DNA of 64,000 bases from Nitrospirota bacterium (GCA_963740085.1 CAVUCU010000001.1:640001-704000); one strand, 5' to 3'; positions 22,739 through 38,639 are shown, numbered from the stretch's first letter. Notes: generated from the letters alone by a model not told the origin. Made by a program: numbers and translations.

Positions 22739-22887
22739 GGGTCCTCCTGAAAATATAGCCACCGAGATGATCCCGGGGGATGATACATGAGGGATTAAAA
22801 ATGCGCTCACCCGGCGTCCCTCGTTCCTCATCCATCATCCATGGCTCCCAATTCTGGTGATTCCTCTTGATCGATCGCGTTACGCAT

Positions 22888-23397
22888 TTATGCCGCGACC
22901 TTTTCCCCGATGCCCAGCTGGAACACCTCGAACTTCACCATCACCCTGCCGTTCTCCAGCCTGACCTCAAGGGTATCGAGCGACCGGGGAGCCGGGCCTC
23001 CCAGCACCTTGCCGTTGATATCGAAGACACTGCCGTGGCAGGGGCACTTGAAACGCCTGTCGGCATCGGACCACCGGTATCCGCAGCCCAGGTGCGGGCA
23101 GTTCGGCGAGTACGCGGTCACCGTATTGTCCTGTCTCCTGACGATCCAGATGGATCTCTCCTGCTTTTCCTCCTGCCAACCGCTCCTGACAAGCTGAAAG
23201 AACCTCCGCTCCTGCGGTTCGTTTACCTTCAGGTCATTCAGAGTTCCTGCGTCGCTCCAGCTCGTTTCTTTCTTCCTGAGCGCAGGCAGGATGCCGAAGC
23301 CGCCGAACGGTACCGTCAGCGCCGCAGCTATGAAAACGCCGATGCCCACGATGGTGCGAACCATGAAGTTCCTTCGCGTTACGTCCTGATCGTTCAT
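22888..23397 (-). CDS. Rieske 2Fe-2S subunit of the bc complex
   Basis: Tat motif TRRNF, CPHLGC and CPCHGS boxes, GPAPRSL. Confidence 0.93.
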   Translation of the reverse strand: MNDQDVTRRNFMVRTIVGIGVFIAAALTVPFGGFGILPALRKKETSWSDAGTLNDLKVNEPQERRFFQLVRSGWQEEKQERSIWIVRRQDNTVTAYSPNCPHLGCGYRWSDADRRFKCPCHGSVFDINGKVLGGPAPRSLDTLEVRLENGRVMVKFEVFQLGIGEKVAA

Positions 23398-23478
23398 CAA
23401 ACCTCCTGGAAAGAATAAAGCTCCGCGCAACTGACTCAGACCATTACGATTCCATCGCAATTGCAACATTAGTCAAGG

Positions 23479-24231: not shown

Positions 24232-25224
24232 ATGAATATGGTAACCTTCTACAACTCCTATCCGGGTATGTACATCACCCAATCGTTCTTTCACTCGTTC
24301 ATAACCGTGCTGCTTGTCGATGCGGCTCTCCAGGCGTGGAAGATCGAGAACCCCATCACGCGACAATACTTCCGCCTCATCGTCATCATCCTGCCGATCC
24401 TATCGTTTCCCCTCTACCAGGCCTTGAGTCCGGAACGGGGTTCGCTCTCCTTCAGACTGGACGCCCTGTTTGATTCGACCCGTTGGCTGAATCTCGATAT
24501 CTGGCACGGCATAACGTCCGGGATGCTGTTCTTCCTCTTGCTGTCCTTTACGACGATTGTCTTTCTCCTCCAGGAGATGATCCCCATCATCAAACACGCG
24601 CTTGCATCGAGAGTGACCGAATCCTCTGGTGAAAAGCCCGCGGAGGATTCCGCCGTTAGCCGTGCATTGGCCGGCATATCCGGCCCCAAACCCGACGTCT
24701 TCATAGTCCAGGACGACGACCTTATCCTGTTCGTTACTACGGGAAAACATCCTGCGATCTTTCTTTCAACGGGAACCGTCGAGGCCTTTACGATAGAGCA
24801 GCTGCAAACGGCGCTTGCCCATGAGATCGCCCATATCGAGCGAAATAAGCGGCCGCTGCTCATCGCCGCGTTCGTGCTCAGGATCGTTCAGTTTTTCAGC
24901 CCCGTCGCCCTCATTGAGTTCCGGAGGATCGTGCAGGAAGAGGAAAAAATATGTGACGATTTCGCGGTGACCCTGACGGGAAAATCCCAGGCCCTTGCAG
25001 ATACGCTGCGCAAGTTTCACGGCCCGGCCGACAACCGTCAAGCGGGGGGCGCCGGCGCCGCAATGCCCCTCAAAGAACGCTTGAACGAATCTGGCCACAC
25101 GCGGATCATCATGAACAGAATTTTGCGCCTCGAGGCAAACCCCATACTAAGGCCTTCACGGGATCGTTTTGCGTTCCTCATCACCTGCACAGCGATCCTC
25201 ATCATCAACTACGCCATCGTATGA
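24232..25224 (+). CDS. Membrane zinc metallopeptidase, M56/M48 (BlaR1-like) family
   Basis: N-terminal TM helices, ALAHEIAH (HExxH), EEKICDDFA. Confidence 0.85.
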   Translation: MNMVTFYNSYPGMYITQSFFHSFITVLLVDAALQAWKIENPITRQYFRLIVIILPILSFPLYQALSPERGSLSFRLDALFDSTRWLNLDIWHGITSGMLFFLLLSFTTIVFLLQEMIPIIKHALASRVTESSGEKPAEDSAVSRALAGISGPKPDVFIVQDDDLILFVTTGKHPAIFLSTGTVEAFTIEQLQTALAHEIAHIERNKRPLLIAAFVLRIVQFFSPVALIEFRRIVQEEEKICDDFAVTLTGKSQALADTLRKFHGPADNRQAGGAGAAMPLKERLNESGHTRIIMNRILRLEANPILRPSRDRFAFLITCTAILIINYAIV

Positions 25225-25772
25225 CCGATCAGGGAGATACCATGTGGGAAAGAATGCGCGGCTTTATCATGTTCATCGTAGCGGTTGGCATCTTGATTGT
25301 TTTCCTCAAAGCGCTGAACTGGGTTCCGGGTATCCTCCAGGAAGGCCTTTCGAACACCTATGGCAGTATTGAAGAAGTCGAATCGAAACTTCATTTTCGG
25401 GAAATATTGATCCCCTCGTACTACCCGCAAGGACTGCAATGGCCACCGGCGCTGATAACAGCGCAGACGAAGCCCTATGCCATGGTCCAGATGGAATGTA
25501 CCCGGCAACAAGATAACAAGGTATCGCTCATTATTTCACAGACTGCACTACCCTACCCCGATCCCAAGGTGTCCATAGAAATGATCAAAAAAAATGAACC
25601 GGTCCAATATACTTTTAAGGGACGAAATGCCGCGCTCGTCGCGGGCCTGTGCGGAAATAATGAGCCTTGCAGCCGCATCTCATGGAATGAGCCCCGCTAT
25701 CATATAGACGTGATCATGCTGTCCCTCCCCTCAGAAATCGTAAAAATCGCTGAAAGCATGGTCTCGAAATAA
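25221..25772 (+). CDS. Membrane-anchored hypothetical protein
   Basis: Overlaps the peptidase stop (ATGA); single N-terminal TM and a soluble domain (PSYYPQGLQWPP). Confidence 0.72.
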   Translation: MTDQGDTMWERMRGFIMFIVAVGILIVFLKALNWVPGILQEGLSNTYGSIEEVESKLHFREILIPSYYPQGLQWPPALITAQTKPYAMVQMECTRQQDNKVSLIISQTALPYPDPKVSIEMIKKNEPVQYTFKGRNAALVAGLCGNNEPCSRISWNEPRYHIDVIMLSLPSEIVKIAESMVSK

Positions 25773-25911
25773 TTCTCCATGAACTCCCGATGCCCGTATG
25801 CGCGGTATCCACCTGACGGGAACGCATTTCTTATCGACCCACCTGACATTGCAGCAAACAATAAATACAGCTTTAGCACTAAGAGCATATTCCCGCTTGA
25901 CTACGAGTTTT

Positions 25912-26835
25912 TACCGATTATCAAAATGTGATTCATATGATAAGGTTCAATCAACGATACGACAAGTCACAAAAAAAGGAGGTAACACACCATGCTTACA
26001 CATGCGGGAGGACAAGTGGTCGGGAACGGAACGTACTGGGATATCATGACCGGACTAAGGGTCGACATAGAACGGGAAGGAACGCTCCCGGGGGGAAACC
26101 GGACAAAATACCTGAAGGCTTCTTCAAGTGCAGTGCTGTTGTCGGGGCCCATTCTTGGGTTGGCCTACGTCATTTTTCTGCCGATCGTGGGCATCGTGAC
26201 GGCGCTCTCCCTCCTGGTTCGGAAGGTTTTGGGAGGGGTGTTCAGCCTGGGCAGGAACATCATCTCTTTCGGATGGAGACCCACCGAGGCGTATTTGGGC
26301 GGAAAGAACAGAAGGAAAGGTGACGGCGACAAGCCGGGAAGATCGCCGAATAAAAAGTGAGCGGGGGAATGCCGACGCTCTCACGATGGCGCACTCACGA
26401 CAAACAATAATCTAAAACTAAAGGAGGGCATAGTTATGAACAGCATGTTTGATTTTGTCACCCATGTCAAGGTGGTCGAGTATCTTCTTTCCCTGGCCTT
26501 AATTGCAGGATATCTTCTGGTCTGGGAGGCGCTGAAACCAAGACCGTTCCGCAAGGTAAAGGAGGTCGGCCAGGAGGATCTGGCGCATATCAGGCAGAAC
26601 GGCATGAAGGGCACGCTGAAGCTGGTGGGAAAGATCGCCGCCGCTCCATTCGTCGGGCTGCTCTATATAATCCTTCTCCCCGTCGGCCTGGTCAGCGCAC
26701 TGTTCTATGCCCTGATCTCGGGGGTGATGGGAAAAAGCCCGTCATTTTCCTGGAGACCGGCCGAGGCATACCTCTCCGGCAAAAAGAAGACCAAGAAACA
26801 GGAAGTTGATACCGACAAGCAGCCTGAGAAAAAAT
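25912..26835 (+). repeat. Copy 1 of the ~1 kb two-gene cassette
   Basis: Near-identical to the copies at 28743 and 29769 by direct comparison. Confidence 0.95.
25992..26360 (+). CDS. Small membrane protein A, copy 1
   Basis: 122 aa; AGGAGG RBS; TM segment plus WRPTEAYLGG. Confidence 0.8.
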   Translation: MLTHAGGQVVGNGTYWDIMTGLRVDIEREGTLPGGNRTKYLKASSSAVLLSGPILGLAYVIFLPIVGIVTALSLLVRKVLGGVFSLGRNIISFGWRPTEAYLGGKNRRKGDGDKPGRSPNKK

Positions 26836-26837
26836 AA
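26436..26837 (+). CDS. Small membrane protein B (HmcD-like N-terminus), copy 1
   Basis: 133 aa; AGGAGG RBS; two hydrophobic segments plus WRPAEAYLSG. Confidence 0.8.
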   Translation: MNSMFDFVTHVKVVEYLLSLALIAGYLLVWEALKPRPFRKVKEVGQEDLAHIRQNGMKGTLKLVGKIAAAPFVGLLYIILLPVGLVSALFYALISGVMGKSPSFSWRPAEAYLSGKKKTKKQEVDTDKQPEKK

Positions 26838-26844
26838 CGTTTCC

Positions 26845-26886
26845 GTCACAGGAGGGACGCTCGAAGTAAGAGCACCCTCCTGCGAC
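26845..26886. terminator. Stem-loop after B1, between convergent genes
   Basis: GTCACAGGAGGG..GCTC / GAGC..CCCTCCTGCGAC inverted repeat. Confidence 0.5.
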
Positions 26887-27102
26887 ATCTCAGTTTCTCG
26901 ACGCCATGATCCTTTTCAGGTTTTCACTTCGTTTTTCTTACGTCAACCGCGGCGCCTGCAAAAGAAAGCCTCTTTTTCTGCGATATTGCCGCTCATCGAC
27001 CATGACCCCGTGTTCAAGTATCTTTTCGCTCATTACAAAAGTCGAATGAAGGGCCAAGACACATCGGGACGGTCCTGACCCAAAACGCTCGATCCCCTGC
27101 CG

Positions 27103-27351
27103 TCATTCCTGTCCGCAGGACGGCGTCTCACACGGGGTTCTGCTTCCACAGCATGTCTGGGCCTTCCCGCATTGGGTGCGTATCCCTGTTCCGGAATCGG
27201 CGCCCTTTATCAGAAAACCGCTTCCTCCCGAATAAATCCTTCTCACGCTTCCCTTGCAATCGGGACAGGCAGTGACCGGTGCATCATGCATTGACTGGCT
27301 GATCTCGAACCGTGTGCCGCAGGCATCGCAACCATATTCATATACCGGCAT
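27103..27351 (-). CDS. FmdB-family zinc-ribbon protein with Cys-rich tail
   Basis: MPVYEYGCDAC...CPDC..VRRIYS; tail CGKAQTCCG..PCETPSC. Confidence 0.88.
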   Translation of the reverse strand: MPVYEYGCDACGTRFEISQSMHDAPVTACPDCKGSVRRIYSGGSGFLIKGADSGTGIRTQCGKAQTCCGSRTPCETPSCGQE

Positions 27352-27477
27352 TACGTTCTCCTTAGATGGTTCATTTTTTTATCGCATTCGGGCCAAGATG
27401 ACAGCATGATCGTATTCGTGACGGGGGAACAATCGCCCCGGACAGCAGGTACGCTTCCGGGGCAGAGTAACAAGTCG

Positions 27478-27807
27478 TTAGATTTTCTGCAGAATGGCGA
27501 GCGATGTCTTTGTAAAACAGACTCCCTCGGGAAGTTTGCAGTTCCCTGCCTTCTTCTGACCTACGGGATTCTCCGGTTTATTCATGGCTGCTATCCCGCC
27601 CCTGGCAGCGGCAAAAACACGGGTGAACTCTCCCGAAAGGCCCTTTATTTCCCCTGCGTACTGGGTCTCGAATTTGGCCAGATTCTCTTTGACCGCCGTG
27701 AGCGTAGTAATGAAGGAATTACAGGAACGGCAAAACGGGTCCGCCTGCTGGTTCTTCAGCACGCCGAACAGATATGCATAACTACGCGCCTGATTCATGA
27801 TCTCCAT
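27478..27807 (-). CDS. Hypothetical Cys-motif protein
   Basis: GGAGG RBS; CRSC and Cx6C motifs; operon context. Confidence 0.7.
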   Translation of the reverse strand: MEIMNQARSYAYLFGVLKNQQADPFCRSCNSFITTLTAVKENLAKFETQYAGEIKGLSGEFTRVFAAARGGIAAMNKPENPVGQKKAGNCKLPEGVCFTKTSLAILQKI

Positions 27808-27843
27808 TGATAAGGCCCTCCTCTGTGTATATACGGGAAATAT

Positions 27844-28224
27844 TTAATGAGCGCATCCCCCGTCGTCGCTGTGGCCGCCGCAGCACCCCTGGAGCGTCAA
27901 CGTGGGGAGTTTCTGCGAATCGAACATCGTCATGTTTTCCCGTATCGTTGCCGCCGATGAACGATGCACGATGATCCCCATCTGGTTCAGCCTCGTAAGC
28001 GCGCCCGCGCCGATGCCGCCCACGACGATCGCGTCGACCTTCTGATTGTCGAGCGCCTTCATGGGGTTGCACGCTCCATGGGTGTGGTGCTGGTCCCGGT
28101 TGTTGATCGTTGAGATATCATTCGTGTCGGTATCCACCACGACAAAAAACGGCGCCGAGCCGAAATGATTGAACACCGCGCTTTCGATCCCATCGTCTTT
28201 CTGTACTGGAAAACAGATCTTCAT
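27844..28224 (-). CDS. NifB/NifX-family (FeMo-cofactor-binding domain) protein
   Basis: MKICFP, HFGSAPFF, VDAIVVGGIGAGA; Cys/His-rich tail. Confidence 0.9.
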   Translation of the reverse strand: MKICFPVQKDDGIESAVFNHFGSAPFFVVVDTDTNDISTINNRDQHHTHGACNPMKALDNQKVDAIVVGGIGAGALTRLNQMGIIVHRSSAATIRENMTMFDSQKLPTLTLQGCCGGHSDDGGCAH

Positions 28225-28247
28225 GTTCGTTCCTCCCTATAAAGTGG

Positions 28248-28523
28248 TTATTCAAACACTATGGCCTTGCCTGTTGCAAGCGCCATCGCAACTTTTTTTC
28301 TCGCCAGAGAAAGAATCCTCTGAATGGTCCCCCTCGACACGCCCATCCTGTCGCCTGCTTCTTCCTGCGTCAGGTCGTCAAGGTCGCAGAGTTTCAAGGC
28401 CTCAAGCTCATCCAGGGAAACAGAAATGCGTTCCACCTCGGACATCGGGACCCCCGTGGGCTTGTATGCCTTTCCCTTGAAGCTGCACTGGCAATGACGC
28501 GGTTTTTTACAACGTGGAGACAT
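28248..28523 (-). CDS. DUF134 family HTH DNA-binding protein
   Basis: PRCKKPRHC, YKPTGVP, DELEALKLCD, TQEEAG.RMGVSRGT, ARKKVA. Confidence 0.88.
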   Translation of the reverse strand: MSPRCKKPRHCQCSFKGKAYKPTGVPMSEVERISVSLDELEALKLCDLDDLTQEEAGDRMGVSRGTIQRILSLARKKVAMALATGKAIVFE

Positions 28524-28541
28524 GAAGACCTTTCTTTATTT

Positions 28542-28585
28542 GTGCATATGCACGTAATGATACCCGGTGCACTTTCTGTTGTCAA
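28542..28585 (-). promoter_or_regulatory. Sigma-70 promoter with a 12-bp palindromic operator at the expected start site
   Basis: Minus strand TTGACA-17 nt-TATCAT; perfect palindrome GTGCATATGCAC at 28542-28553. Confidence 0.7.
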
Positions 28586-28742
28586 GGGTTTTCTTTTCTT
28601 TAGCAGCAATATTCCTGGTCACAAGGCATGGCAGCAGGCATAGCAGGACTTTGCGGATACGGCAAGAACGAACAAGAAAGCACGTCCTCCGAGACTATCG
28701 CTCGCCTGCATCACGTTTTCATAAGATAAACTCCACGGTATA

Positions 28743-29700
28743 ACTACGAACATTTTCCTATGTACGTAGGAACTTATACCGATTATCAAAATGTGATTCA
28801 TATGATAAGGTTCAATCAACGATACGACAAGTCACAAAAAAAGGAGGTACACACCATGCTTACACATGCGGGAGGACAAGTGGTCGGGAACGGAACGTAC
28901 TGGGATATCATGACCGGACTAAGGGTCGACATAGAACGGGAAGGAACGCTCCCGGGGGGAAACCGGACAAAATACCTGAAGGCTTCTTCAAGTGCAGTGC
29001 TGTTGTCGGGGCCCATTCTTGGGTTGGCCTACGTCATTTTTCTGCCGATCATGGGCATCGTGACGGCGCTCTCCCTCCTGGTTCGGAAGGTTTTGGGAGG
29101 GGTGTTCAGCCTGGGCAGGAACATCATCTCTTTCGGATGGAGACCCACCGAGGCGTATTTGGGCGGAAAGAACAGAAGGAAAGGTGACGGCGACAAGCCG
29201 GGAAGATCGCCGAATAAAAAGTGAGCGGGGGAATGCCGACGCTCTCATGATGGCGCACTCACGACAAACAATAATCTAAAACTAAAGGAGGGCATAGTTA
29301 TGAACAGCATGTTTGATTTTGTCACCCATGTCAAGGTGGTCGAGTATCTTCTTTCCCTGGCCTTAATTGCAGGATATCTTCTGGTCTGGGAGGCGCTGAA
29401 ACCAAGACCGTTCCGCAAGGTAAAGGAGGTCGGCCAAGAGGATCTGGCGCATATCAGGCAGAACGGCATGAAGGGCACGCTGAAGCTGGTGGGAAAGATC
29501 GCCGCCGCTCCATTCGTCGGGCTGCTCTATATAATCCTTCTCCCTGTCGGCCTGGTCAGCGCACTGTCCTATGCCCTGATCTCGGGGGTGATGGGAAAAA
29601 GCCCGTCGTTTTCCTGGAGACCGGCCGAGGCATACCTCTCCGGCCACAAGAAGACCAAAAAGCAGGAAGCTGTTGACGACAAGCAATCTGAGCAGAAGGA
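28743..29700 (+). repeat. Copy 2 of the ~1 kb two-gene cassette
   Basis: Offset by 1026 bp from copy 3; 3' end of gene B diverges. Confidence 0.95.
28856..29224 (+). CDS. Small membrane protein A, copy 2
   Basis: Same as A1 except one V-to-M change; AGGAGG RBS before ATG 28856. Confidence 0.8.
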   Translation: MLTHAGGQVVGNGTYWDIMTGLRVDIEREGTLPGGNRTKYLKASSSAVLLSGPILGLAYVIFLPIMGIVTALSLLVRKVLGGVFSLGRNIISFGWRPTEAYLGGKNRRKGDGDKPGRSPNKK

Positions 29701-29713
29701 GAACTCACGATAA
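29300..29713 (+). CDS. Small membrane protein B, copy 2
   Basis: 137 aa; distinct C-terminal tail. Confidence 0.8.
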   Translation: MNSMFDFVTHVKVVEYLLSLALIAGYLLVWEALKPRPFRKVKEVGQEDLAHIRQNGMKGTLKLVGKIAAAPFVGLLYIILLPVGLVSALSYALISGVMGKSPSFSWRPAEAYLSGHKKTKKQEAVDDKQSEQKENSR

Positions 29714-29768
29714 CGCAGGAAGGCTTGCTCTCAGCAGACGTTATCACCATTAAACGTTACTATTTGTT

Positions 29769-30725
29769 ACTACGAACATTTTCCTATGTACGTAGGAACT
29801 TATACCGATTATCAAAATGTGATTCATATGATAAGGTTCAATCAACGATACGACAAGTCACAAAAAAAGGAGGTACACACCATGCTTACACATGCGGGAG
29901 GACAAGTGGTCGGGAACGGAACGTACTGGGATATCATGACCGGACTAAGGGTCGACATAGAACGGGAAGGAACGCTCCCGGGGGGAAACCGGACAAAATA
30001 CCTGAAGGCTTCTTCAAGTGCAGTGCTGTTGTCGGGGCCCATTCTTGGGTTGGCCTACGTCATTTTTCTGCCGATCGTGGGCATCGTGACGGCGCTCTCC
30101 CTCCTGGTTCGGAAGGTTTTGGGAGGGGTGTTCAGCCTGGGCAGGAACATCATCTCTTTCGGATGGAGACCCACCGAGGCGTATTTGGGCGGAAAGAACA
30201 GAAGGAAAGGTGACGGCGACAAGCCGGGAAGATCGCCGAATAAAAAGTGAGCGGGGGAATGCCGACGCTCTCACGATGGCGCACTCACGACAAACAATAA
30301 TCTAAAACTAAAGGAGGGCATAGTTATGAACAGCATGTTTGATTTTGTCACCCATGTCAAGGTGGTCGAGTATCTTCTTTCCCTGGCCTTAATTGCAGGA
30401 TATCTTCTGGTCTGGGAGGCGCTGAAACCAAGACCGTTCCGCAAGGTAAAGGAGGTCGGCCAAGAGGATCTGGCGCATATCAGGCAGAACGGCATGAAGG
30501 GCACGCTGAAGCTGGTGGGAAAGATCGCCGCCGCCCCGTTCGTCGGGCTGCTCTATATAATTCTTCTCCCGGTCGGCCTGGTCAGCGCACTGTCCTATGC
30601 CCTGATCTCGGGTGTGATGGGAAAAAGCGCGTCATTTTCCTGGAGACCTGCCGAGGCATACCTCTCCGGCAAAAAGAAGACCAAGAAGCAGGAAGTTGAT
30701 ACCGACAAGCAGCCTGAGAAAAAAT
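29769..30725 (+). repeat. Copy 3 of the ~1 kb two-gene cassette
   Basis: Tandem to copy 2; directly precedes the cytochrome c3 gene. Confidence 0.95.
29882..30250 (+). CDS. Small membrane protein A, copy 3
   Basis: Protein identical to A1. Confidence 0.8.
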   Translation: MLTHAGGQVVGNGTYWDIMTGLRVDIEREGTLPGGNRTKYLKASSSAVLLSGPILGLAYVIFLPIVGIVTALSLLVRKVLGGVFSLGRNIISFGWRPTEAYLGGKNRRKGDGDKPGRSPNKK

Positions 30726-30727
30726 GA
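30326..30727 (+). CDS. Small membrane protein B, copy 3
   Basis: 133 aa; two substitutions relative to B1. Confidence 0.8.
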   Translation: MNSMFDFVTHVKVVEYLLSLALIAGYLLVWEALKPRPFRKVKEVGQEDLAHIRQNGMKGTLKLVGKIAAAPFVGLLYIILLPVGLVSALSYALISGVMGKSASFSWRPAEAYLSGKKKTKKQEVDTDKQPEKK

Positions 30728-30802
30728 TTTTTTTACCGCAAAAGGGTCGCTCAAGAGAGCAGCATCCCTTTTGTAATTGTAATCTAAGGAGGAACGGAAA
30801 GA

Positions 30803-31291
30803 ATGAAAATCGTTACCCTGATCATTGCATCGCTGTGCTTCATCTTTCTTTCTCTAACAGTCGTTCATGCCGAGGAAGGAACGTCAAGTGCGGCCACCCC
30901 TCGTAGGATCATCAAGTTGGACAGCATCGTAAATATCTATAAGCCCGTACAATTCAATCATGAAAAACACATCGCTATTGCCGGTGATTGCGGGAAGTGT
31001 CACCATCAGCACGGGAATAACGCAAGCCTGCCCTGCCATGAGTGCCATAACATTAAGGCACAGTTGTTTAAAAGCTCTCTGACGGGAAGTTTCATGGCAT
31101 GCAAAAATTGCCATGGGGACTTAGACCCCTCAACGCCCCGGATGCCGGGGCTCAAGGTCGCCTATCATCGCCAGTGTTTTCAGTGTCACTGGGGCATGAA
31201 CGAGGTGGGCCTCAGTCCAAAGGGCTGCACCATCATGTGTCATGACAAACGTGACCAGAAGGTGAGCGCGAAAGCACACAAATCACTCTAA
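30803..31291 (+). CDS. Periplasmic class III (c3-type) multiheme cytochrome
   Basis: Signal peptide; PVQFNHEKH; four CxxCH motifs plus one CxxxCH; LKVAYH. Confidence 0.9.
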   Translation: MKIVTLIIASLCFIFLSLTVVHAEEGTSSAATPRRIIKLDSIVNIYKPVQFNHEKHIAIAGDCGKCHHQHGNNASLPCHECHNIKAQLFKSSLTGSFMACKNCHGDLDPSTPRMPGLKVAYHRQCFQCHWGMNEVGLSPKGCTIMCHDKRDQKVSAKAHKSL

Positions 31292-31347
31292 TGAGCACGC
31301 GTACCACGCTATTCACGCTATTAAGGAAAGAGGAGGAATGAGAAATT

Positions 31348-32379
31348 ATGGATAAGAATGCAAAGAAACCCTCTGAACCCGCCAATCCACTGTCAGAACA
31401 GCGCGGCACCGGGGGGGATAAATCTGATGCCGGCACCATGGGTGACAGTCTGAATTTCACCAGAAGAAGGTTCATGGGCACGGTCGCCGCAATAGGCGGA
31501 GCGCTGGGGGCGGCTAGCCTGGCATCCAGGGCGAAGATAGCAGGCGCGAAAGAGTTCGAAGGGTCAGCCGACCGCTACGGTGTGCTGTACGATCTGACCC
31601 TTTGCGTCGGATGCCGCAGCTGCGAAAAGGCCTGCAATGAATATAACAAGCTGCCTGCCCCGGCGGTGCCGTTCGATGATCCCTCGGTATTCGAGGAGAC
31701 GCGGAGACCGACGGTGGAGGCCTATACCGTGGTCAACCGGTACCCGAACCCCAAGGACCCGAGCAAGCCGCTCTACCGCAAGATTCAATGCAATCATTGC
31801 AACGAACCGGGATGCGCAACGTCTTGCCCTGTTCATGCGTACACGAAGCACCCGGAAGGTCCTGTTACCTATAACGTGGACCTCTGTTTCGGCTGCCGGT
31901 ATTGCATGGTGGCCTGTCCCTACTATGTCCCCGCGTATGACTACAACAGCGCGCTCGAGCCCCGGATCTCGAAATGCACCATGTGCGTTGATCGCGTCAA
32001 ACACGGACTTCCTACGGCGTGTTCAGAGATCTGTCCTACCGGCGCTCTCACGTTCGGCAAACGCGCCGACCTGATCAACGTTGCACGGGAGAAGATCATT
32101 AAAAATCCTGACAAGTATATCGACCACATTTTCGGTGAGAACGAGGCGGGAGGATCAAGCTGGCTGTATATCTCCGGAGTCCCTTTCGAGCACTACGGGT
32201 TCCCGGCGCATGTCCAAAAGGCCCCCTTGCTGGAAAATACGAAGGGGTTCCTTGCGAGCGTTCCCCTCGTTTTCGTCGTCTGGCCGGCCCTCTTCGGAAT
32301 GCTTTACTCCGCAACACAACACCGCAACCGTTCAGAGAACGATGGCGATCATGAGAAAACGGAGGACAAAAAGAAATGA
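31348..32379 (+). CDS. Tat-exported 4Fe-4S protein (HybA/HmcB-like) with C-terminal TM anchor
   Basis: TRRRFM; CVGCRSCEKAC, CNHCNEPGCATSCP, CFGCRYCMVACP, KCTMC..CSEICP; true start may be 31438. Confidence 0.9.
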   Translation: MDKNAKKPSEPANPLSEQRGTGGDKSDAGTMGDSLNFTRRRFMGTVAAIGGALGAASLASRAKIAGAKEFEGSADRYGVLYDLTLCVGCRSCEKACNEYNKLPAPAVPFDDPSVFEETRRPTVEAYTVVNRYPNPKDPSKPLYRKIQCNHCNEPGCATSCPVHAYTKHPEGPVTYNVDLCFGCRYCMVACPYYVPAYDYNSALEPRISKCTMCVDRVKHGLPTACSEICPTGALTFGKRADLINVAREKIIKNPDKYIDHIFGENEAGGSSWLYISGVPFEHYGFPAHVQKAPLLENTKGFLASVPLVFVVWPALFGMLYSATQHRNRSENDGDHEKTEDKKK

Positions 32380-33614
32380 GCAACGCTAACCTCGAACAGA
32401 TGGATCATCTCCAGACTACTTTCATGCAGAAACTTCGGATGGGCATGTCGTGGCAGGAGTACACGCGAAGCCTTATCACTCCGTTTAACATCGTCGCTGC
32501 GCTCATCCTCAGTGTCGGCCTGCCGGTGATCGTGATGCGTTTTGCCAAGGGGCTCGTTTTCGCTACCCATGCATCCAACGAATATCCCTGGGGGCTCTTT
32601 CTCGGATGGGGGCTCTTCGGCGGGGTCCCCCTCTCGGCCACCGGTTTTGTCATGGCGACGGCCTATTATATCTTCGGGTTCAAGGACTATCACCCGCTCG
32701 TACGGCTTGGCGTGCTGACGGGTCTACTCGGTTATTTCTTCGCCGCTGTATATCTGATGATTGACCTCGGCAGACCCTGGCGCATCTATTTTCCGATGAT
32801 AATGGGCTTTGGAACGGCCTCGATCCTCTTCCTCGTGGCCTGGCACGTATCAACGTACTTGACGGTACAGATCCTCGAGTTCAGTCCGGCCATTCTCGAG
32901 TGGATCAAATCGAGGCGTGTCCGGCGGTGGGCGCTTATGACCACGGTCGGTTTGACGATCGCGGGCATCATCCTCTCGACACTTCACCAGTCAGCGCTCG
33001 GCGGCATGTTCCTCCTCGCTCCCGGGAAGCTTCACCCGCTCTGGTTTTCGACCTTCTTGCCGGTCTTGTTCCTGAGTTCGAGCATCTATGCGGCCCTGGC
33101 CATGGTGATCGTCGTCAGCACCCTCTCGGTAAAGTTTCTCCGCCACCGTGCGGATGATATTTTCATCAACAGCCTGGACCGTCTGACCCTCGGGCTGGGG
33201 AAAGGGGCTATTGTCGGGATCTACGTCTACTTTGCCTTGAAGTTGATCAGTGTGGCCCACGACGATAACTGGGCGCTCCTGAACACACCGTACGGACACT
33301 GGTTCTTGGTGGAGCTGCTCGGTTTCATCCTCCTTCCCGCGGTAATCTTGACGTATGGTGTCAAGACGAGACAAGCCGGCATCGTGCGGTTTGGGGCCTT
33401 TTTTGCCGTACTCGGCGTTCTGATGAACAGAATCAATGTCTCCATTATCGCCTTCAACTGGAACCTGCCGCACCACCTGCATCACATCGTGCCTCCGTGG
33501 CAGGAAGTCGTCATTGTAGCGGCAATTGTTACTATTCACATACTCGTCTTTCGGTGGATCGTGAACAGGATGCCGGTAATTCGTGAAGATACGAGCTACC
33601 ACGAACTTCATTAA
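32376..33614 (+). CDS. NrfD/HybB/HmcC-family membrane subunit
   Basis: YPWGL, DLGRPWR, LSTLHQSALG, KLHPLW; about 10 TM helices. Confidence 0.9.
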   Translation: MSNANLEQMDHLQTTFMQKLRMGMSWQEYTRSLITPFNIVAALILSVGLPVIVMRFAKGLVFATHASNEYPWGLFLGWGLFGGVPLSATGFVMATAYYIFGFKDYHPLVRLGVLTGLLGYFFAAVYLMIDLGRPWRIYFPMIMGFGTASILFLVAWHVSTYLTVQILEFSPAILEWIKSRRVRRWALMTTVGLTIAGIILSTLHQSALGGMFLLAPGKLHPLWFSTFLPVLFLSSSIYAALAMVIVVSTLSVKFLRHRADDIFINSLDRLTLGLGKGAIVGIYVYFALKLISVAHDDNWALLNTPYGHWFLVELLGFILLPAVILTYGVKTRQAGIVRFGAFFAVLGVLMNRINVSIIAFNWNLPHHLHHIVPPWQEVVIVAAIVTIHILVFRWIVNRMPVIREDTSYHELH

Positions 33615-33658: not shown

Positions 33659-33838
33659 CGACTTACAGGGAAAGAGAAAGAGGCAACGGGAGCCGAATCT
33701 GTTCCCCGGATGGATCCCGACAGGCGCCTTGACAGATGTCCACGACCCGGCCTTCAGACGTGTCACAAAACGGGGTGTTCGATTGTCAGCTCGTTGGGAA
33801 TGAGCCGACGGCAGGATACCGATAGTGGGAGATGCATA

Positions 33839-35287
33839 ATGAGGACCCGGAATATACTCCTGTTTTTCGCGCTGTTGTTATCGCTGCAGGTCACGTCGGG
33901 GATAGACCGCTTGGAAGCAGCTGACCCGAACCTCTCCTATCAAAACAAGCCCTGCCTCGGTTGTCACGGCAAACAGAACATCACCCTTTCGTTCCGAAAC
34001 AGGGAGTCGGTATCCGGTTACATTGATGAAGAAAAAATGAAAACATCGGTCCACGCCTCGTTTGCCTGCACTAACTGCCATGCTGAATTCGCGGGAGACC
34101 GGCATCCAAAAAGGAATTTTCAATCCCGGGCGCAGTACCGGGTCCGTTCCTCTTTCGCCTGCAGGCGGTGCCACTCGGACGAACAAATCAGGACCAGGCC
34201 CGTTCACATCGATGTGTTGAGCGGGGAAAGATCGGGGAATCCGCTGGTCTGCGCCGATTGCCACGGGTCCCACTCCGTTATTCGATTGACAAAAAAAAAA
34301 TCACTCAGCGATGAGGCAAAGCTTTGTTTGCGCTGCCACCAGAAGAGTGTCCATGTGTCTTACCAGAATGGCGAACAACGTTCTCTGCGGGTCGACCCCT
34401 TGCTTCTTGAAGCATCTGTTCACAATAAGCTCAGCTGTTCCGACTGCCACTATGGTTTTTCTTCAGAAGCACATCCGAAGCGTAACTTTCGGACGCGAAG
34501 AGACATGACCATCGCTACAGCAGAGGTGTGCCGGCGATGCCATTTCGATAAATACACAAAATTCCAGGACAGCATCCACTACGCCAGATTGAGCCAGGGG
34601 AACCTCAACGCCCCCGTCTGTACCGACTGCCATGACTCGCACTCCATCGCCTCAGCCGGCAGGGAGCGCATCGTCAGCGCCAACCGCTGTAAAAAATGCC
34701 ATCTTGACATTTATACCATCTACGCAAATAGCGTCCACGGCGGCGCACTGCTGAACGAGCACAACAAGGATGTCCCGGTATGCGTAGACTGCCATAAGAC
34801 GCACGACATCCAGAGTCCGCATACCGCTGAATACCGGGAGCGGATCCCTGAAATGTGCAGCAAGTGCCATGCAAACAAAGAGATCATGGGAAAGTACGGC
34901 CTGTCCACGGACGTTATAAAGACCTATCTCTCCGATTTTCACGGCGTCACGCTGGGGTTTTATATAAAACAGAAGGACCTTCTCCCCAAACAAACGAAGA
35001 CAATCGCCGTATGCATCGACTGTCACGGCATCCACAACATCACCAGCACTGTCAGCCCTGATGCGACGATCGTTAAAGCGAATCTGGTGCAACGATGTCG
35101 AAAATGCCATGCCGATGCGACCGAAAACTTTCCCGATGCGTGGATATCCCACTATAAACCGAGTCTGCAGCGGGCGCCGCTCATTTTTATCATCGGCATC
35201 CTGTACCGGATATTCACCCCTATCATGGTCATCGGATTGGTCTTGCAGATCCTGCTGCATATCTGGCGCTATGCGGTAAACCGGTGA
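33839..35287 (+). CDS. Membrane-anchored 13-heme cytochrome c
   Basis: 13 CxxCH motifs counted, recurring SVH/SIH motifs, signal peptide, C-terminal TM helix. Confidence 0.9.
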   Translation: MRTRNILLFFALLLSLQVTSGIDRLEAADPNLSYQNKPCLGCHGKQNITLSFRNRESVSGYIDEEKMKTSVHASFACTNCHAEFAGDRHPKRNFQSRAQYRVRSSFACRRCHSDEQIRTRPVHIDVLSGERSGNPLVCADCHGSHSVIRLTKKKSLSDEAKLCLRCHQKSVHVSYQNGEQRSLRVDPLLLEASVHNKLSCSDCHYGFSSEAHPKRNFRTRRDMTIATAEVCRRCHFDKYTKFQDSIHYARLSQGNLNAPVCTDCHDSHSIASAGRERIVSANRCKKCHLDIYTIYANSVHGGALLNEHNKDVPVCVDCHKTHDIQSPHTAEYRERIPEMCSKCHANKEIMGKYGLSTDVIKTYLSDFHGVTLGFYIKQKDLLPKQTKTIAVCIDCHGIHNITSTVSPDATIVKANLVQRCRKCHADATENFPDAWISHYKPSLQRAPLIFIIGILYRIFTPIMVIGLVLQILLHIWRYAVNR

Positions 35288-35298
35288 TACGGAGGGAG

Positions 35299-36030
35299 AT
35301 GAACATGGGCATGGTAAATAGCGAACAGAAGGACAACCGCATCAGGCGGTTCGGTCCCTACCGGATCATCGAGCACTGGCTGCACGCCGCAGTTTTCTGC
35401 ATGCTCGTCATCACGGGGCTTTCTCAAAAGTTCCATACCTACGACCTCTCGCAGTGGCTCGTCTTCCACCTTGGCGGAATCGATGCCGTCAGGCTCATGC
35501 ATCGCGCTGCCGGCATCATTCTCATCATCCTGCTCATGGAGCACCTTGTCGTGGCTTCAGTGGGCATCATCCGGCTGAGATGGCAGGCATCGATGATAAT
35601 TCAAATGAAAGACTTCCAGGATGCTGTCGACAATCTCAAGTATTACTTCGGGATAAAAAATCACCGTGCCTTGTGCGATCGATACGATTATAAACAAAAA
35701 TTCGATTACTGGGGCGTCCTGATGAGCAATTTGATCATGATCGTCTCCGGGCTCATTCTTTGGTTTCCCATAACAACGTCCAGGTATCTCTACGGTGAAT
35801 TTATCCCTGCCGCTAACGTCATTCACACGAACCAATCATTACTCCTCATCCTTATCATCGCCATCTGGCACATCTATAACTCCATATTCAGCCCGGAAAT
35901 ATTCCCCTTTGACACCAGCATCCTCACCGGGTATCTTCCCAAAGAGAGAATGGTACGCGAACACCCTCTCGAACTAGCCCGGATGGAACGTGTTGCTGGA
36001 AAAAAACAGCACGTGTCTCCCCATACCTGA
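35299..36030 (+). CDS. Di-heme cytochrome b (FdnI/CbcL-b-domain-like)
   Basis: RIIEHWLH, LMHR, RYDYKQKFDYW, IHT, IWHIYN, EHPLE. Confidence 0.85.
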   Translation: MNMGMVNSEQKDNRIRRFGPYRIIEHWLHAAVFCMLVITGLSQKFHTYDLSQWLVFHLGGIDAVRLMHRAAGIILIILLMEHLVVASVGIIRLRWQASMIIQMKDFQDAVDNLKYYFGIKNHRALCDRYDYKQKFDYWGVLMSNLIMIVSGLILWFPITTSRYLYGEFIPAANVIHTNQSLLLILIIAIWHIYNSIFSPEIFPFDTSILTGYLPKERMVREHPLELARMERVAGKKQHVSPHT

Positions 36031-36163: not shown

Positions 36164-37969
36164 ATGCAGAAGAAGCTGATTATCTCACTTATCCTCTATG
36201 TGATTGTTATGTCGGCAGGTCTCGGCATTCTCAGCACGATAGCCGTCGACGACGCCATAGAGCGGTCATTACAGAAGAGCCTCACCTCGGCACAGACCAT
36301 TGCAAATCAGCTGGATTTTCTCTTGCAGGCCAATATCAGCAGGTTATACGACATCTCGCTTTCGGGTAAAGTGAACCTCAAAACAAGGGACTGGGCCCCG
36401 GTGAAGCGCCTGCTCGAATCAATTTACCAATACTCTGTCTTCACGGAAGGCGTATTCCTCGTCGACAAGCTGGGCAATACCCTCCTTTCCTATCCGGCCC
36501 GTGATTACGGCAAGGAAAATCTGCTGTTCATCCCCTGGGTGAGCCGGGTCCTCACTGAGGGCAAACCGATCATCTCGAATTTGTACACCATCGAACCGAT
36601 CAAGAAGCCGCTTATATTCGTCCTTGTACCCCTGAGAAATACAGCAGGAAAAGTCGTAGGCGCAGCGGGAGGCGCCATCAATCCCACGAATTCCGTCCTG
36701 AGCAGGCTTCTTCAGGCAACAGTCACGTCCGAAACGGAAAATCATTACCTGGAGATCATCGACTCCAACGAGGTCGTCATCGCGTCCGATAAGACCTCTC
36801 ATATCCTGGAACATCACAATTATGACGGTATCCTGGGGAAAATGATTACTGATCATCAATCCGGAGTAAAAAACTTCGGCCGTGGTTTCTCCCAGGCGGA
36901 TGGAAAATGGCAGGATGTATTGGCTGTTGTGCCGCTTCAATCGGTATCATGGGCCATCGTCTTCGGTCAGACCAAGGATGAGGTCTATCAGCCGGCCCAT
37001 CAACTCAGGAATAAGTTTTTTCTGCTGGCATTGATCTTAATCGCAACAGCGATCATCTTTTCCATCGGCATCAGCAGGAACATCGTAAGCCCCATTCGAT
37101 CCCTCATCAATGCCACAGACCGGATCGGACAGGGCGATCTCTCTGTTCCGGTAGGGAATATCGGCAGCGACGAAATTGCCCTACTCGGGAATAGTTTTGA
37201 CGACATGCGGGAAAAGCTGGCCAAGTCCCTCGAAAGCATACATCATCAGAACATTGAGCTTGAAGAACGGGTAAAGAGGCGGACTCAGCAGCTGGAGGAA
37301 AAACAGCTCGCGAACACCACGCTCCTGAAGCAGTTGATCACCTCCCAGGAGGATGAGCGGAAGAGGATCGCACGAGAACTCCACGATGAATCGCTCCAGA
37401 CCCTCTCGGCTATCCTCATGAATATCGAGATGTGCCGGCTTCATCCTGATTTCATAGATCTTGATAGAGTTACCGTGATGAGAGACACCGTCACCCGTGT
37501 CATCAATGAAATGAACAAGGTAATCCAGAACCTGCGGCCGACAGTGCTCGATGACCTGGGGTTTGAAGCCGCGATCGTCTGGCTCGTGGACCAGAACCTC
37601 AAGGACAAGGGCATCTGCTGCTATCTGAATATGCAGGAATTGGCCGAAGAACGGCTCGCGCCAGAAATCCAGATCACGCTCTTCCGGATCATTCAGGAAA
37701 CAATCACGAATATCGCCAGGCATTCCGAGGCAACGCATGTGTCCTTGCACCTCGGGACAGACAGAAGGAATTTCACCATGTCCGTAGAGGACGACGGGGT
37801 CGGGTTCGATTTGAATTCGGTGAACGATAATGTACAGACCGGGCGCGGGTTGGGAATCCTCGGCATGAAGGAACGGGCCGCGCAGGTGAACGGGATATGG
37901 CAAATCTGGTCCTCACCCGGCGAGGGGACGATTGTGCAGTGCAGCATTCCGCTTACAATGGAGGGATAA
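36164..37969 (+). CDS. Sensor histidine kinase (Cache-HAMP-HisKA_3)
   Basis: QEDERKRIARELHDE, LRPTVLDDLG, FRIIQE..TNIARH, GLGILGMKER. Confidence 0.92.
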   Translation: MQKKLIISLILYVIVMSAGLGILSTIAVDDAIERSLQKSLTSAQTIANQLDFLLQANISRLYDISLSGKVNLKTRDWAPVKRLLESIYQYSVFTEGVFLVDKLGNTLLSYPARDYGKENLLFIPWVSRVLTEGKPIISNLYTIEPIKKPLIFVLVPLRNTAGKVVGAAGGAINPTNSVLSRLLQATVTSETENHYLEIIDSNEVVIASDKTSHILEHHNYDGILGKMITDHQSGVKNFGRGFSQADGKWQDVLAVVPLQSVSWAIVFGQTKDEVYQPAHQLRNKFFLLALILIATAIIFSIGISRNIVSPIRSLINATDRIGQGDLSVPVGNIGSDEIALLGNSFDDMREKLAKSLESIHHQNIELEERVKRRTQQLEEKQLANTTLLKQLITSQEDERKRIARELHDESLQTLSAILMNIEMCRLHPDFIDLDRVTVMRDTVTRVINEMNKVIQNLRPTVLDDLGFEAAIVWLVDQNLKDKGICCYLNMQELAEERLAPEIQITLFRIIQETITNIARHSEATHVSLHLGTDRRNFTMSVEDDGVGFDLNSVNDNVQTGRGLGILGMKERAAQVNGIWQIWSSPGEGTIVQCSIPLTMEG

Positions 37970-37970
37970 T

Positions 37971-38639
37971 ATGGGGTTCAAGCCGAAAATTCTGATCGCC
38001 GACGATCACGCCCTGGTACGCCAGGGGATCGCCGCATTTCTCAACATATCCGATGCGTACGAGATTGTGGGAGAGGCAGCGGACGGCGTGGAGGCCATTG
38101 AGGCCGTGAGAAAATACAAGCCCGACATCGTGCTCATGGACATTTCCATGCCGAAGCTCGGCGGGCTCGAGGCGACCGTGGAGATCAAAAAGATCGCCCC
38201 TGATGTGAAGATCCTCGTGCTGACCCAGTATGAGGACACGGTATATATCAGGCGCTTTTTCAAGGCAGGGGTGTCCGGCTACCTGCTCAAGAAAGCGGTC
38301 GGTGTGGAACTGATTACCGCGATCGAGGCAATCCGGGCGGGAAAGGTGTACATCCATCCATCTATCGCTGCGGGTCTCGTGGACGGCTACATGGGCATTC
38401 AGAGGGGGGAGTGTGTCGATGATACGTATGATTCACTGACGGACCGCGAGAAACAGGTCCTGAAACTGATCGCGGAGGGATATACACAAAAGGAGGCTGC
38501 CGACATCCTCAATATCAGCGCAAAAACAGTCGTCACCCACCAAACCAACATCAGCGAAAAGCTCGACATCCATACCCGTGCCGGACTTATCAAGTTTGCA
38601 ATTCAGAAGGGAATTATTAAAATTGACGGGGTCACGTAA
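37971..38639 (+). CDS. NarL/LuxR-family response regulator
   Basis: ILIADDH, MDISMP, LTDREKQVLKLIAEG HTH. Confidence 0.93.
   Translation: MGFKPKILIADDHALVRQGIAAFLNISDAYEIVGEAADGVEAIEAVRKYKPDIVLMDISMPKLGGLEATVEIKKIAPDVKILVLTQYEDTVYIRRFFKAGVSGYLLKKAVGVELITAIEAIRAGKVYIHPSIAAGLVDGYMGIQRGECVDDTYDSLTDREKQVLKLIAEGYTQKEAADILNISAKTVVTHQTNISEKLDIHTRAGLIKFAIQKGIIKIDGVT

Follow-up and report, generated by a model that had tools for sequence, protein, structure and literature searches.

Why should a bacterium keep three almost identical copies of a pair of small genes directly ahead of a respiratory gene cluster? The question is raised by a stretch of 64,000 nucleotides (nt) from a soil Nitrospirota bacterium (GCA_963740085.1 CAVUCU010000001.1:640001-704000), hereafter the window, in which a cassette made up of an upstream element, gene A and gene B occurs three times, followed by genes for a c3-type cytochrome, an HmcB-like iron-sulfur subunit and an HmcC-like membrane subunit of the NrfD family (Table 1). 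Our analysis leads us to favor, with moderate confidence, the reading that A and B are accessory inner-membrane proteins that would be functionally part of this Nhc/Hmc-like c3-HmcB-HmcC complex and probably needed in excess.

The unit is ~0.93-0.95 kb long (n=3) and consists of the upstream element, gene A (122 amino acids, aa), a 75-nt spacer and gene B (133, 137 and 133 aa). A repeat search placed the copies 2864 and 1026 bp apart, copies 2 and 3 lying in tandem with a period of 1026 bp. Self-BLAST of the whole 3.46 Mb genome agreed: positions 28743-29692 match 29769-30718 over 950 bp (98.0% identity), 25909-26835 match 29800-30725 over 927 bp (98.7% identity), and 25909-26828 match 28774-29692 over 920 bp (98.0% identity). 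A search of the source genome found no fourth full-length A or B. The genome is poor in repeats, with 35 repeat pairs that reach 400 bp and 90% identity, three of which are the cassette.

The copies differ unevenly. Gene A has one variable codon (codon 66, V/M/V), and the A-B spacer has a single base difference. In gene B, codons 1-45 are the same in all three copies, and codons 46-115 hold nine synonymous and two non-synonymous variable codons, including CCC/CCT/CCG at codon 82, GCT CCA/GCC CCG at codons 70-71 and GGG/GGT at codon 96. The differences form a mosaic, copy 3 being the odd one out at codons 70-108 and copy 2 at codons 116-134; the separate tail of B2 (HKKTKKQEAVDDKQSEQ...), which begins at codon 116, resembles the tail of the distal B copies in a genome of the same genus (G001). 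All six open reading frames (ORFs) are intact and carry ribosome-binding sites (AAAGGAGGT ahead of A, AAAGGAGGG ahead of B). No transposase or integrase was found among the ORFs scanned in the interval, where Zn-ribbon, NifX-like and DUF134 matches appeared instead. These results bear out the description in the initial annotation, made from the same DNA, of a two-gene unit of ~0.95 kb present three times with a tandem pair, almost identical A genes and spacers, mostly third-position mosaic changes in B, a B2 tail of its own, intact ORFs with ribosome-binding sites and no mobility gene.

A longer reading of gene A was considered and rejected. In copies 2 and 3 (28760-29224 and 29786-30250), the A frame is open for 32 codons further 5', with an ATG inside the conserved element, giving an ORF of 154 aa; orthologues begin at the ATG of the 122 aa form, behind AGGAGG. 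In copy 1, one extra base (GGTAACAC versus GGTACAC) closes the longer frame, and a contig from another sample (X3 record 21) has copy 3 with that extra A too.

The window derives from a metagenome-assembled genome (MAG), and a strain mixture that was collapsed or expanded during assembly could have produced the triplication. We compared the locus with contigs assembled from short reads in four soil-metagenome runs, all belonging to one study; one of the runs may be the source sample. The tandem junction from B2 to A3 is crossed by X1 record 6 (29615-29832, 0 differences) and by X3 record 21, the entry into copy 2 is covered by X2 record 12 (28557-29508), and the exit from copy 1 by X3 record 17 (26665-27119), so that unique junctions of all three copies are spanned. 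Moreover, each copy has distinct flanks, the tail of B2 is distinct, and separately assembled sister genomes share the multi-copy layout. The three-copy arrangement is thus supported by these contigs, which give the arrangement and not the copy number, and an artefact is extremely improbable.

G001, the genome of the same genus, carries the order AB, a 109 aa gene and a NifX-like gene (both on the minus strand), AB, an inserted set of A', multiheme', cytochrome b', kinase' and regulator' genes, and AB-AB-c3. Because this layout is shared, the duplication that frames the inserted block, like the AB tandem ahead of c3, dates from before the two genomes diverged. Nevertheless, nucleotide identity is 95-100% among the copies of one genome, whereas it is 77-80% for orthologues in different genomes. 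A tree of the proteins groups the three window B copies together (100/98), and in it the c3-proximal B proteins of G001 and G003 form one clade (98/99) apart from their distal copies. Positions shared with the sister genome, identity higher within than between genomes, the tree, the distal-type tail of B2 and the tract-like mosaic in B are therefore the signature of repeated gene conversion, which keeps the copies alike and which the initial annotation had already proposed. Conversion has gone furthest in the upstream element, in gene A, in the spacer and in the 5' third of B. The ratio of non-synonymous to synonymous substitution rates (dN/dS) is 0.16-0.30 between genomes and 0.07-0.34 between the window B copies; A and B are under purifying selection.

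A and B are themselves paralogous (42% identity over 72 residues, BLASTP E 8e-14). They share a C-terminal module, in which a ~30-residue hydrophobic segment with conserved (A/G)P..GL.Y....LP..G is followed, 15-25 residues on, by an almost invariant F-x-W-R-P-x-E-A-Y-L-x-G and then by a Lys-rich tail. The motif, extended to F-x-W-R-P-x-E-A-Y-L-x-G-K-K-K, is common to A and B (FGWRPxEAYLGGK in gene A) and lies ~20 residues from the C-terminus; the Lys-rich tail after it is variable. A alone has a ~44-residue N-terminal domain ahead of the module; it also has a basic tail and no signal peptide. AlphaFold2 models A as four short strands (residues 3-42) and a helix (45-90), with a confidence score (pLDDT) of 83-91 in the N-domain and a mean of 73.6. 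B alone has an N-terminal transmembrane helix and a basic loop ahead of the module, and its AlphaFold2 model is poor (pLDDT 61.3). Since cysteines and invariant histidines are absent from both proteins, A and B would be accessory proteins and not redox carriers.

Searches of general resources gave little. A and B had no match in the Pfam set searched, which is without PF28260, and none in NCBIfam at E<=0.01. PADLOC returned none and PHROGs a single match, of unknown function, at E 0.013, on which grounds an identity as anti-phage defense or phage genes was rejected. A PDB sequence search with the B profile had unrelated proteins as its best matches (E 0.4), and Foldseek found nothing in PDB for the A model at E<=0.001. 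A wide VIA-align search with the A model gave Z<=5.7, matching its long helix to coiled coils and barely probing the beta domain. In the ESM Atlas, B falls into Nitrospirota clusters in which 12-23% of members carry PF28260, and A into unnamed clusters only.

Are A and B tied to the complex downstream? The relatives that we compared are Nitrospirota/Thermodesulfovibrionales MAGs, including one Candidatus Sulfobium and a few submitted under other labels, and the neighbor census covered 87 distinct B genes at 79 loci, with A-type genes sought up to 520 nt upstream. An A-type gene lies just 5' of B in 84 of the 87 cases: a long A-type gene in 56, a short form with the module but not the beta domain in 27, and an A N-domain detected alone in 1. 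Two B genes had none and one contig was too short; in one of the two (L058), an A N-domain lies 536 nt upstream, past the limit. Downstream of B there is a c3 gene in 54 cases, another AB pair in 10 and something else in 20, the contig being too short in 3, so that 64 of the 87 B genes stand inside the cluster. The recurring order is M56 peptidase - 183 aa protein - A - B - c3 - HmcB - HmcC - multiheme cytochrome - cytochrome b - kinase(-regulator). Furthermore, full-length B and an HmcC orthologue (E<=1e-100) occur together in 13 of 41 genomes and are both missing from 26; B occurs alone in one genome (68% complete), and HmcC alone in one, an 86% complete genome in which it lies where a contig begins. 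Neither gene was present in the 16 genomes searched from other families of the phylum.

The initial annotation had claimed a functional tie to the downstream complex and had held that its reading would fall if homologues proved unlinked to the redox cluster and not expressed. The tie is supported by the position of the 64 B genes and by the co-occurrence of B with HmcC; B is linked to the cluster in these 64 cases and lies outside it in 20.

Pairing and amplification recur among the relatives. A fusion of A and B exists (P0231), in which residues 1-67 align with the A profile (hhalign 95.2%) and residues 138-260 with the B profile (E 4.8e-30). G001 and G010 have four AB pairs each, and a tandem AB-AB precedes c3 at 10 loci; most genomes outside the genus of the window have a single AB before c3. 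This amplification, and the uniformity of the copies in several genomes, suggests that the small proteins matter and are needed in quantity. A profile search of 1.84 billion cluster representatives returned 248 proteins with E<=0.001, of which 55 had E<=1e-10 and 15 had E<=1e-30. For 150 representatives among the matches listed, three sub-profiles (E<=1e-3) gave the shared module alone in 64, the B-type order of N-helix and module in 27, the A-type order of N-domain and module in 27, the B N-helix detected alone in 13, two modules in 11, three modules in 5 and a module followed by the B N-helix in 1, with no sub-profile match in 2. Several of these proteins (P0227, P0330, P0324, P0350, P0260 and P0332) carry the AAPF-GLAY-LP-G module in two or three tandem repeats, in fusions or in both; some repeats stand behind a response-regulator receiver (REC) domain and one behind an N-terminal fragment of HypA, and in P0227 a receiver domain is joined to a B-like protein. 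Full A-B clusters were also seen in MAGs labeled Betaproteobacteria, Deferribacterales and Deltaproteobacteria (L066, L107 and L124), for which mis-binning, mislabeling or transfer are possible.

What kind of protein is B? The NCBIfam model for HmcD (NF045712, sulf_resp_HmcD, 38 positions) matches 17 of 20 B-family members at E<=0.01 (best 7e-7), aligning its positions 2-31/32 with B residues 2-31. The Pfam family PF28260 is precomputed on 45 of 120 B homologues among the matches listed, and the name given in the ESM Atlas is sulf_resp_HmcD. Similarity thus extends over most of the model, and B is encoded with HmcB/HmcC-type genes, as expected of HmcD; three relatives scanned singly score 23.6-26.5 bits, under the 34-bit cut-off, and B is not a small single-helix protein, having 133-137 aa, a second hydrophobic module and a basic tail. 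A search for short B relatives of the size of HmcD gave three matches, apparently fragments of B. By family-level evidence, the N-terminal helix of B is HmcD-like, and B is not an HmcD equivalog. We know of no function assigned to HmcD itself. In the literature searched, which comprised open journals without supplements, HmcD, NhcD and PF28260 receive passing mentions only, and the extended B, protein A and the shared module are undescribed. The suggestion of an undescribed system in the initial annotation therefore stands for the extended B, its partner and their module, and does not stand for the N-terminal helix of B, which belongs with HmcD, or for the downstream genes, which are HmcB- and HmcC-like.

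The charge pattern bears on how the module may sit in the membrane. Across the alignments, net charge is +3.9 in the B loop before the module, +4.4 in the B tail after it and +5.7 in the A tail. Under the positive-inside rule, basic flanks are expected to be cytoplasmic. Both flanks of the module being basic, they would lie in the cytoplasm on both sides, and a helical hairpin that dips into the membrane from the cytoplasm therefore fits better than a single span; we infer this topology for A and B. The hairpin would also fit the receiver-domain fusions, in which two or three modules are joined by basic linkers. A match to Promethin (E 0.075) is at chance level.

Expression signals were sought round the cassettes. 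The ~110-nt upstream element is conserved in the window genome (G000), G001, G003 and L052 and may be a promoter or a 5' untranslated region. It showed no convincing plus-strand sigma-70 consensus, a promoter/terminator scan was no richer than shuffles, and Rfam returned nothing at E<=1 on 25000-31500. There is a strong stem-loop 3' of B1; the one after B3 is weaker, has a U-run and, at z -1.07, is not significant alone, and B2 has none. Among relatives, 23 of 58 distinct B-to-c3 intergenic stretches, mostly gaps of at least 65 nt, fold at z < -2 (mononucleotide shuffles). Given the conserved upstream element of their own and the stem-loop after B in copies 1 and 3, A and B are probably expressed as a separate unit and made in excess over the large subunits.

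On the repeat, paralogy, synteny, A-B pairing, purifying selection and concerted evolution, we build a model that adds a physical association, a topology, excess expression and a benefit from dosage. The complex would be a periplasm-facing, quinone-interacting assembly of cytochrome c3, HmcB and HmcC (NrfD) typical of Thermodesulfovibrionales-type Nitrospirota. The HmcD/NhcD-type N-terminal helix of B may dock on the NrfD-type subunit, and A and B may pair through their shared module, serving as structural, assembly or organizing subunits and not as redox carriers. The cassettes would form an expression unit of their own whose products outnumber the large subunits; the copies would have arisen by duplications before the split of the sister species and been kept nearly identical by gene conversion. 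A complex prediction for HmcC (alignment A4) with B (alignment A2) scored 0.00 in two runs, which is evidence neither way on binding.

Several observations weigh against this reading. The 20 B genes outside the cluster mostly belong to orphan AB pairs, with ~7 kb around them free of Hmc genes; at 11 orphan loci that were annotated, the neighbors are unrelated metabolic, efflux and regulatory genes, with a transposase nearby in 4 of the 11. In G014 (L046:3372-10230), an A-type gene without B lies on the same strand directly 5' of a CusCBA-like efflux run (YtkA-like, outer-membrane efflux, HlyD/CusB-like and AcrB/CusA-like genes). Three A-type genes without B precede a paralogous multiheme/cytochrome-b/kinase/regulator set. 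This set, seen in L027:10187-15858 (G001), L030 and L058 without B or HmcBC, has identities of 40% for the A-type protein, 49% for the multiheme cytochrome and 50% for cytochrome b, and includes the kinase and the regulator; it hints that A-type proteins go with the multiheme/cytochrome-b pair and B with the HmcBC part. Off the cluster, the secondary AB pairs of G004 (L034:9037-9448) and G005 (L039:9036-9441) have a frameshifted B beside an intact A. The orphans and these two frameshifted copies show that an extra copy need be neither tied to the complex nor retained. As to HmcD, the window B reaches E 0.12 against NF045712 (12.4 bits by hmmscan and 14.9 bits in the genome search, against the cut-off of 34), the model at E<=10 also matches 10 of 14 unrelated control genomes, and no B-family member attains the curated cut-off; the HmcD link therefore rests on the relatives and the precomputed Pfam labels. 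Finally, AlphaFold2 gives the module as one continuous straight helix, without a hairpin.

If A and B were instead an autonomous membrane module, which organizes or bends the membrane or acts as a tether and is co-located and co-regulated with the cluster without providing subunits, the orphan pairs in unrelated contexts, the A-type genes beside other systems and the upstream element on each cassette would find a ready explanation. So would the module that occurs alone, or in 16 of the 150 architectures among the matches listed in two to three tandem copies, some of them behind REC (P0227 and P0330), and the charge pattern may fit a monotopic hairpin that has an amphipathic WRP-EAYL segment after it. 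Such autonomy is somewhat unlikely given the conserved place of AB directly before c3 or in tandem, the near-perfect co-occurrence of B and HmcC orthologues in the 41 genomes searched and the HmcD-like helix of B. Nor did any sign of internal membranes or of membrane shaping emerge, though no search was aimed at one. It is quite improbable that A and B act, in excess, as a scaffold of monotopic hairpins and amphipathic helices that shapes or clusters the membrane round complexes, with the HmcD-type helix of B recruiting the Hmc-like complex and multi-copy and orphan cassettes supplying the bulk; this scaffold would resemble the reticulon/caveolin-like proteins of eukaryotes.

The copies could also be neutral by-products of segmental duplication and recombination, homogenized and not selected for dosage, where one would do. 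The six intact ORFs of the window, their mostly synonymous changes, the independent presence of two to four intact pairs in several lineages, the tandem AB-AB loci and the paucity of repeats in the genome make this unlikely, even though most genomes outside the genus manage with a single AB before c3, secondary B genes are frameshifted in G004 and G005, transposases lie near some orphan loci and conversion by itself accounts for near-identity. Very unlikely, in turn, is a role of A and B as substrates or signaling partners of the M56/M48-type protease and its 183 aa partner, which would regulate the cluster, with WRP-EAYL as the processing site: the orphan AB pairs have no neighboring peptidase gene, no BlaI-type repressor was found in the cluster, and a dedicated kinase/regulator pair already stands at its end. 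What speaks for it is that most main loci keep the M56 peptidase, the 183 aa protein, A and B in this order, that the motif lies near the C-terminus ahead of a variable Lys-rich tail, and that the receiver fusion P0227 exists.

Table 1. Features of the cassette locus and its neighborhood (window coordinates; MFE, minimum free energy)
Feature	Position	Strand	Remarks
M56/M48-type membrane metallopeptidase	24232..25224	+	Pfam Peptidase_M56 1.9e-8, M48 5.4e-6; upstream of A-B in most main loci
183 aa protein	25221..25772	+	hydrophobic N-terminal stretch; syntenic in relatives, 35-66% identity
Upstream non-coding element, copy 1	25909..25991	+	homology to copies 2 and 3 begins at 25909; shorter than theirs
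Gene A, copy 1	25992..26360	+	122 aa; ORF with ribosome-binding site
Gene B, copy 1	26436..26837	+	133 aa
Stem-loop just 3' of B1	26845..26886	+	MFE -27 kcal/mol, z -3.49 against 200 shuffles
Zn-ribbon protein (Zn_ribbon_8)	27103..27351	-	Pfam; in block 27103..28523 between copies 1 and 2
109 aa ORF	27478..27807	-	no family match; same place in G001, 75% identity
NifX-like FeMo-cofactor-domain protein	27844..28224	-	Pfam; same place in G001, 88% identity
DUF134/HTH protein	28248..28523	-	Pfam
Upstream non-coding element, copy 2	28743..28855	+	identical to 29769-29881
Gene A, copy 2	28856..29224	+	122 aa; V66M
Gene B, copy 2	29300..29713	+	137 aa; own C-terminal tail from codon 116
Upstream non-coding element, copy 3	29769..29881	+	
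Gene A, copy 3	29882..30250	+	122 aa; protein identical to copy 1
Gene B, copy 3	30326..30727	+	133 aa
Stem-loop and UUUUG between B3 and cytochrome gene	30738..30774	+	MFE -17.2 kcal/mol, z -1.07
c3/c7-type cytochrome	30803..31291	+	162 aa; 4 CxxCH and 1 CxxxCH; Pfam Cytochrome_C7 5.8e-5
HmcB-like iron-sulfur subunit	31348..32379	+	NF045715 7.2e-117, 389.9 bits (cut-off 420); RRRF twin-arginine motif
HmcC-like NrfD-family membrane subunit	32376..33614	+	NF045714 3.3e-122, 408.4 bits (cut-off 550); Pfam NrfD 1.6e-19
Multiheme cytochrome c	33710..35287	+	13 CxxCH
Cytochrome b, FdnI/Ni_hydr_CYTB type	35284..36030	+	
Histidine kinase (dCache-HAMP-HisKA_3) and REC-GerE response regulator	36164..38639	+	cluster end, conserved by synteny

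The 183 aa protein had no match in Pfam, NCBIfam, PADLOC or PHROGs. The N-terminus of the c3/c7-type cytochrome is hydrophobic and, read by eye, resembles a signal peptide; the NCBIfam models for HmcA, the nine-heme cytochrome and TmcA match this protein partially, all far under their cut-offs. The four-gene block on the minus strand resembles an insertion, with duplicated cassettes on both sides. A bc-type complex, made up of a cytochrome b/b6-c-type cytochrome fusion (458 aa) and a Rieske protein (193 aa), is encoded a few kb upstream of the locus (21455-23469, minus strand). Elsewhere in the window genome there is a duplicate pair of 1.87 kb (C1:1157014-1158876 and C1:1161745-1163610, 95.6% identity), and most of contigs C2 (6.4 kb) and C6 (15.7 kb) is found again on C1 and C5 at 91-99% identity; strain variants or mobile DNA are possible.

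A whole bacterial group has an enlarged HmcD-like protein, together with a paralogous partner, encoded immediately ahead of an Hmc/Nhc-like complex. HmcD and NhcD, named in annotation, are the small membrane subunits of the Hmc and the nine-heme cytochrome (Nhc) complexes of sulfate reducers, and we found no study of their role in the literature searched. The cassette may thus offer a handle on the assembly and organization of NrfD-type quinone modules that are without cytoplasmic partners, and the family found by the profile search has clear motifs for mutagenesis. The hosts are uncultured Thermodesulfovibrionales-type Nitrospirota of soil and subsurface that take part in sulfur cycling; therefore, even a proteomic answer would improve the annotation of their energy metabolism.

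How does the cluster compare with known complexes? It resembles Hmc, Nhc and Tmc, a family of cytochrome c3:quinone oxidoreductases, in its HmcB-like four-cluster ferredoxin with a twin-arginine (Tat) motif, its HmcC-like NrfD protein and its periplasmic c3-type cytochrome. It differs from Hmc and Nhc in the cytochrome, which has 5 heme sites here and 16 or 9 in the known complexes. With this heme count, and with both HmcB and HmcC under their curated cut-offs (Table 1), it does not qualify as an Hmc complex (HmcABCDEF). In addition, a 13-heme cytochrome and an FdnI-type cytochrome b replace HmcE/F at the locus, to which the search for HmcE/F was confined. HmcC is discussed in the part of PMC6303296 available to us; a paper on a multiheme selenoenzyme (PMC13510729) proved, in its accessible part, unrelated.

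NhcABCD is not known to have cytoplasmic subunits of the HmcE/F type, and the cluster described here has none at the locus. In the portion of PMC8076601 at hand, NhcABCD is listed with NhcC, NhcA, NhcB and a fourth subunit, NhcD; the four-part make-up here would be the c3-type cytochrome, the Fe-S subunit, the NrfD subunit and the HmcD-like B. The cytochrome, however, matches the nine-heme model over its last ~65 positions alone, with 44 bits against a cut-off of 640. B resembles HmcD and NhcD in its first ~31 residues, which align, and in adjoining HmcB-like and HmcC-like genes. The canonical place of hmcD is after hmcC, whereas the A/B genes lie ahead of the cytochrome gene and are multi-copy, with orphan copies and scores below 34 bits. 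Moreover, B is ~3 times longer than HmcD; it also possesses a basic loop, another hydrophobic module and a paralogous partner, A.

Two further comparisons concern small subunits and amplified genes. ActD, ActE and ActH are small single-helix accessory subunits of the NrfD-type alternative complex III; the name ActH appears in the same portion of PMC8076601. A and B are likewise small, cofactor-free membrane proteins that go with an NrfD-type complex, but no sequence similarity to such subunits was found, the PDB search with the B profile having returned nothing below E 0.4. As for copy number, the cassette differs from other amplified respiratory genes in that the two smallest genes alone are multiplied. 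Near-identical multi-copy genes under gene conversion are found in ammonia oxidizers (amoCAB with orphan amoC, and hao) and in cyanobacteria (psbA). Like amoCAB, hao and psbA, the A and B genes are near-identical membrane-protein genes of an energy-conserving system, with orphan copies and concerted evolution.

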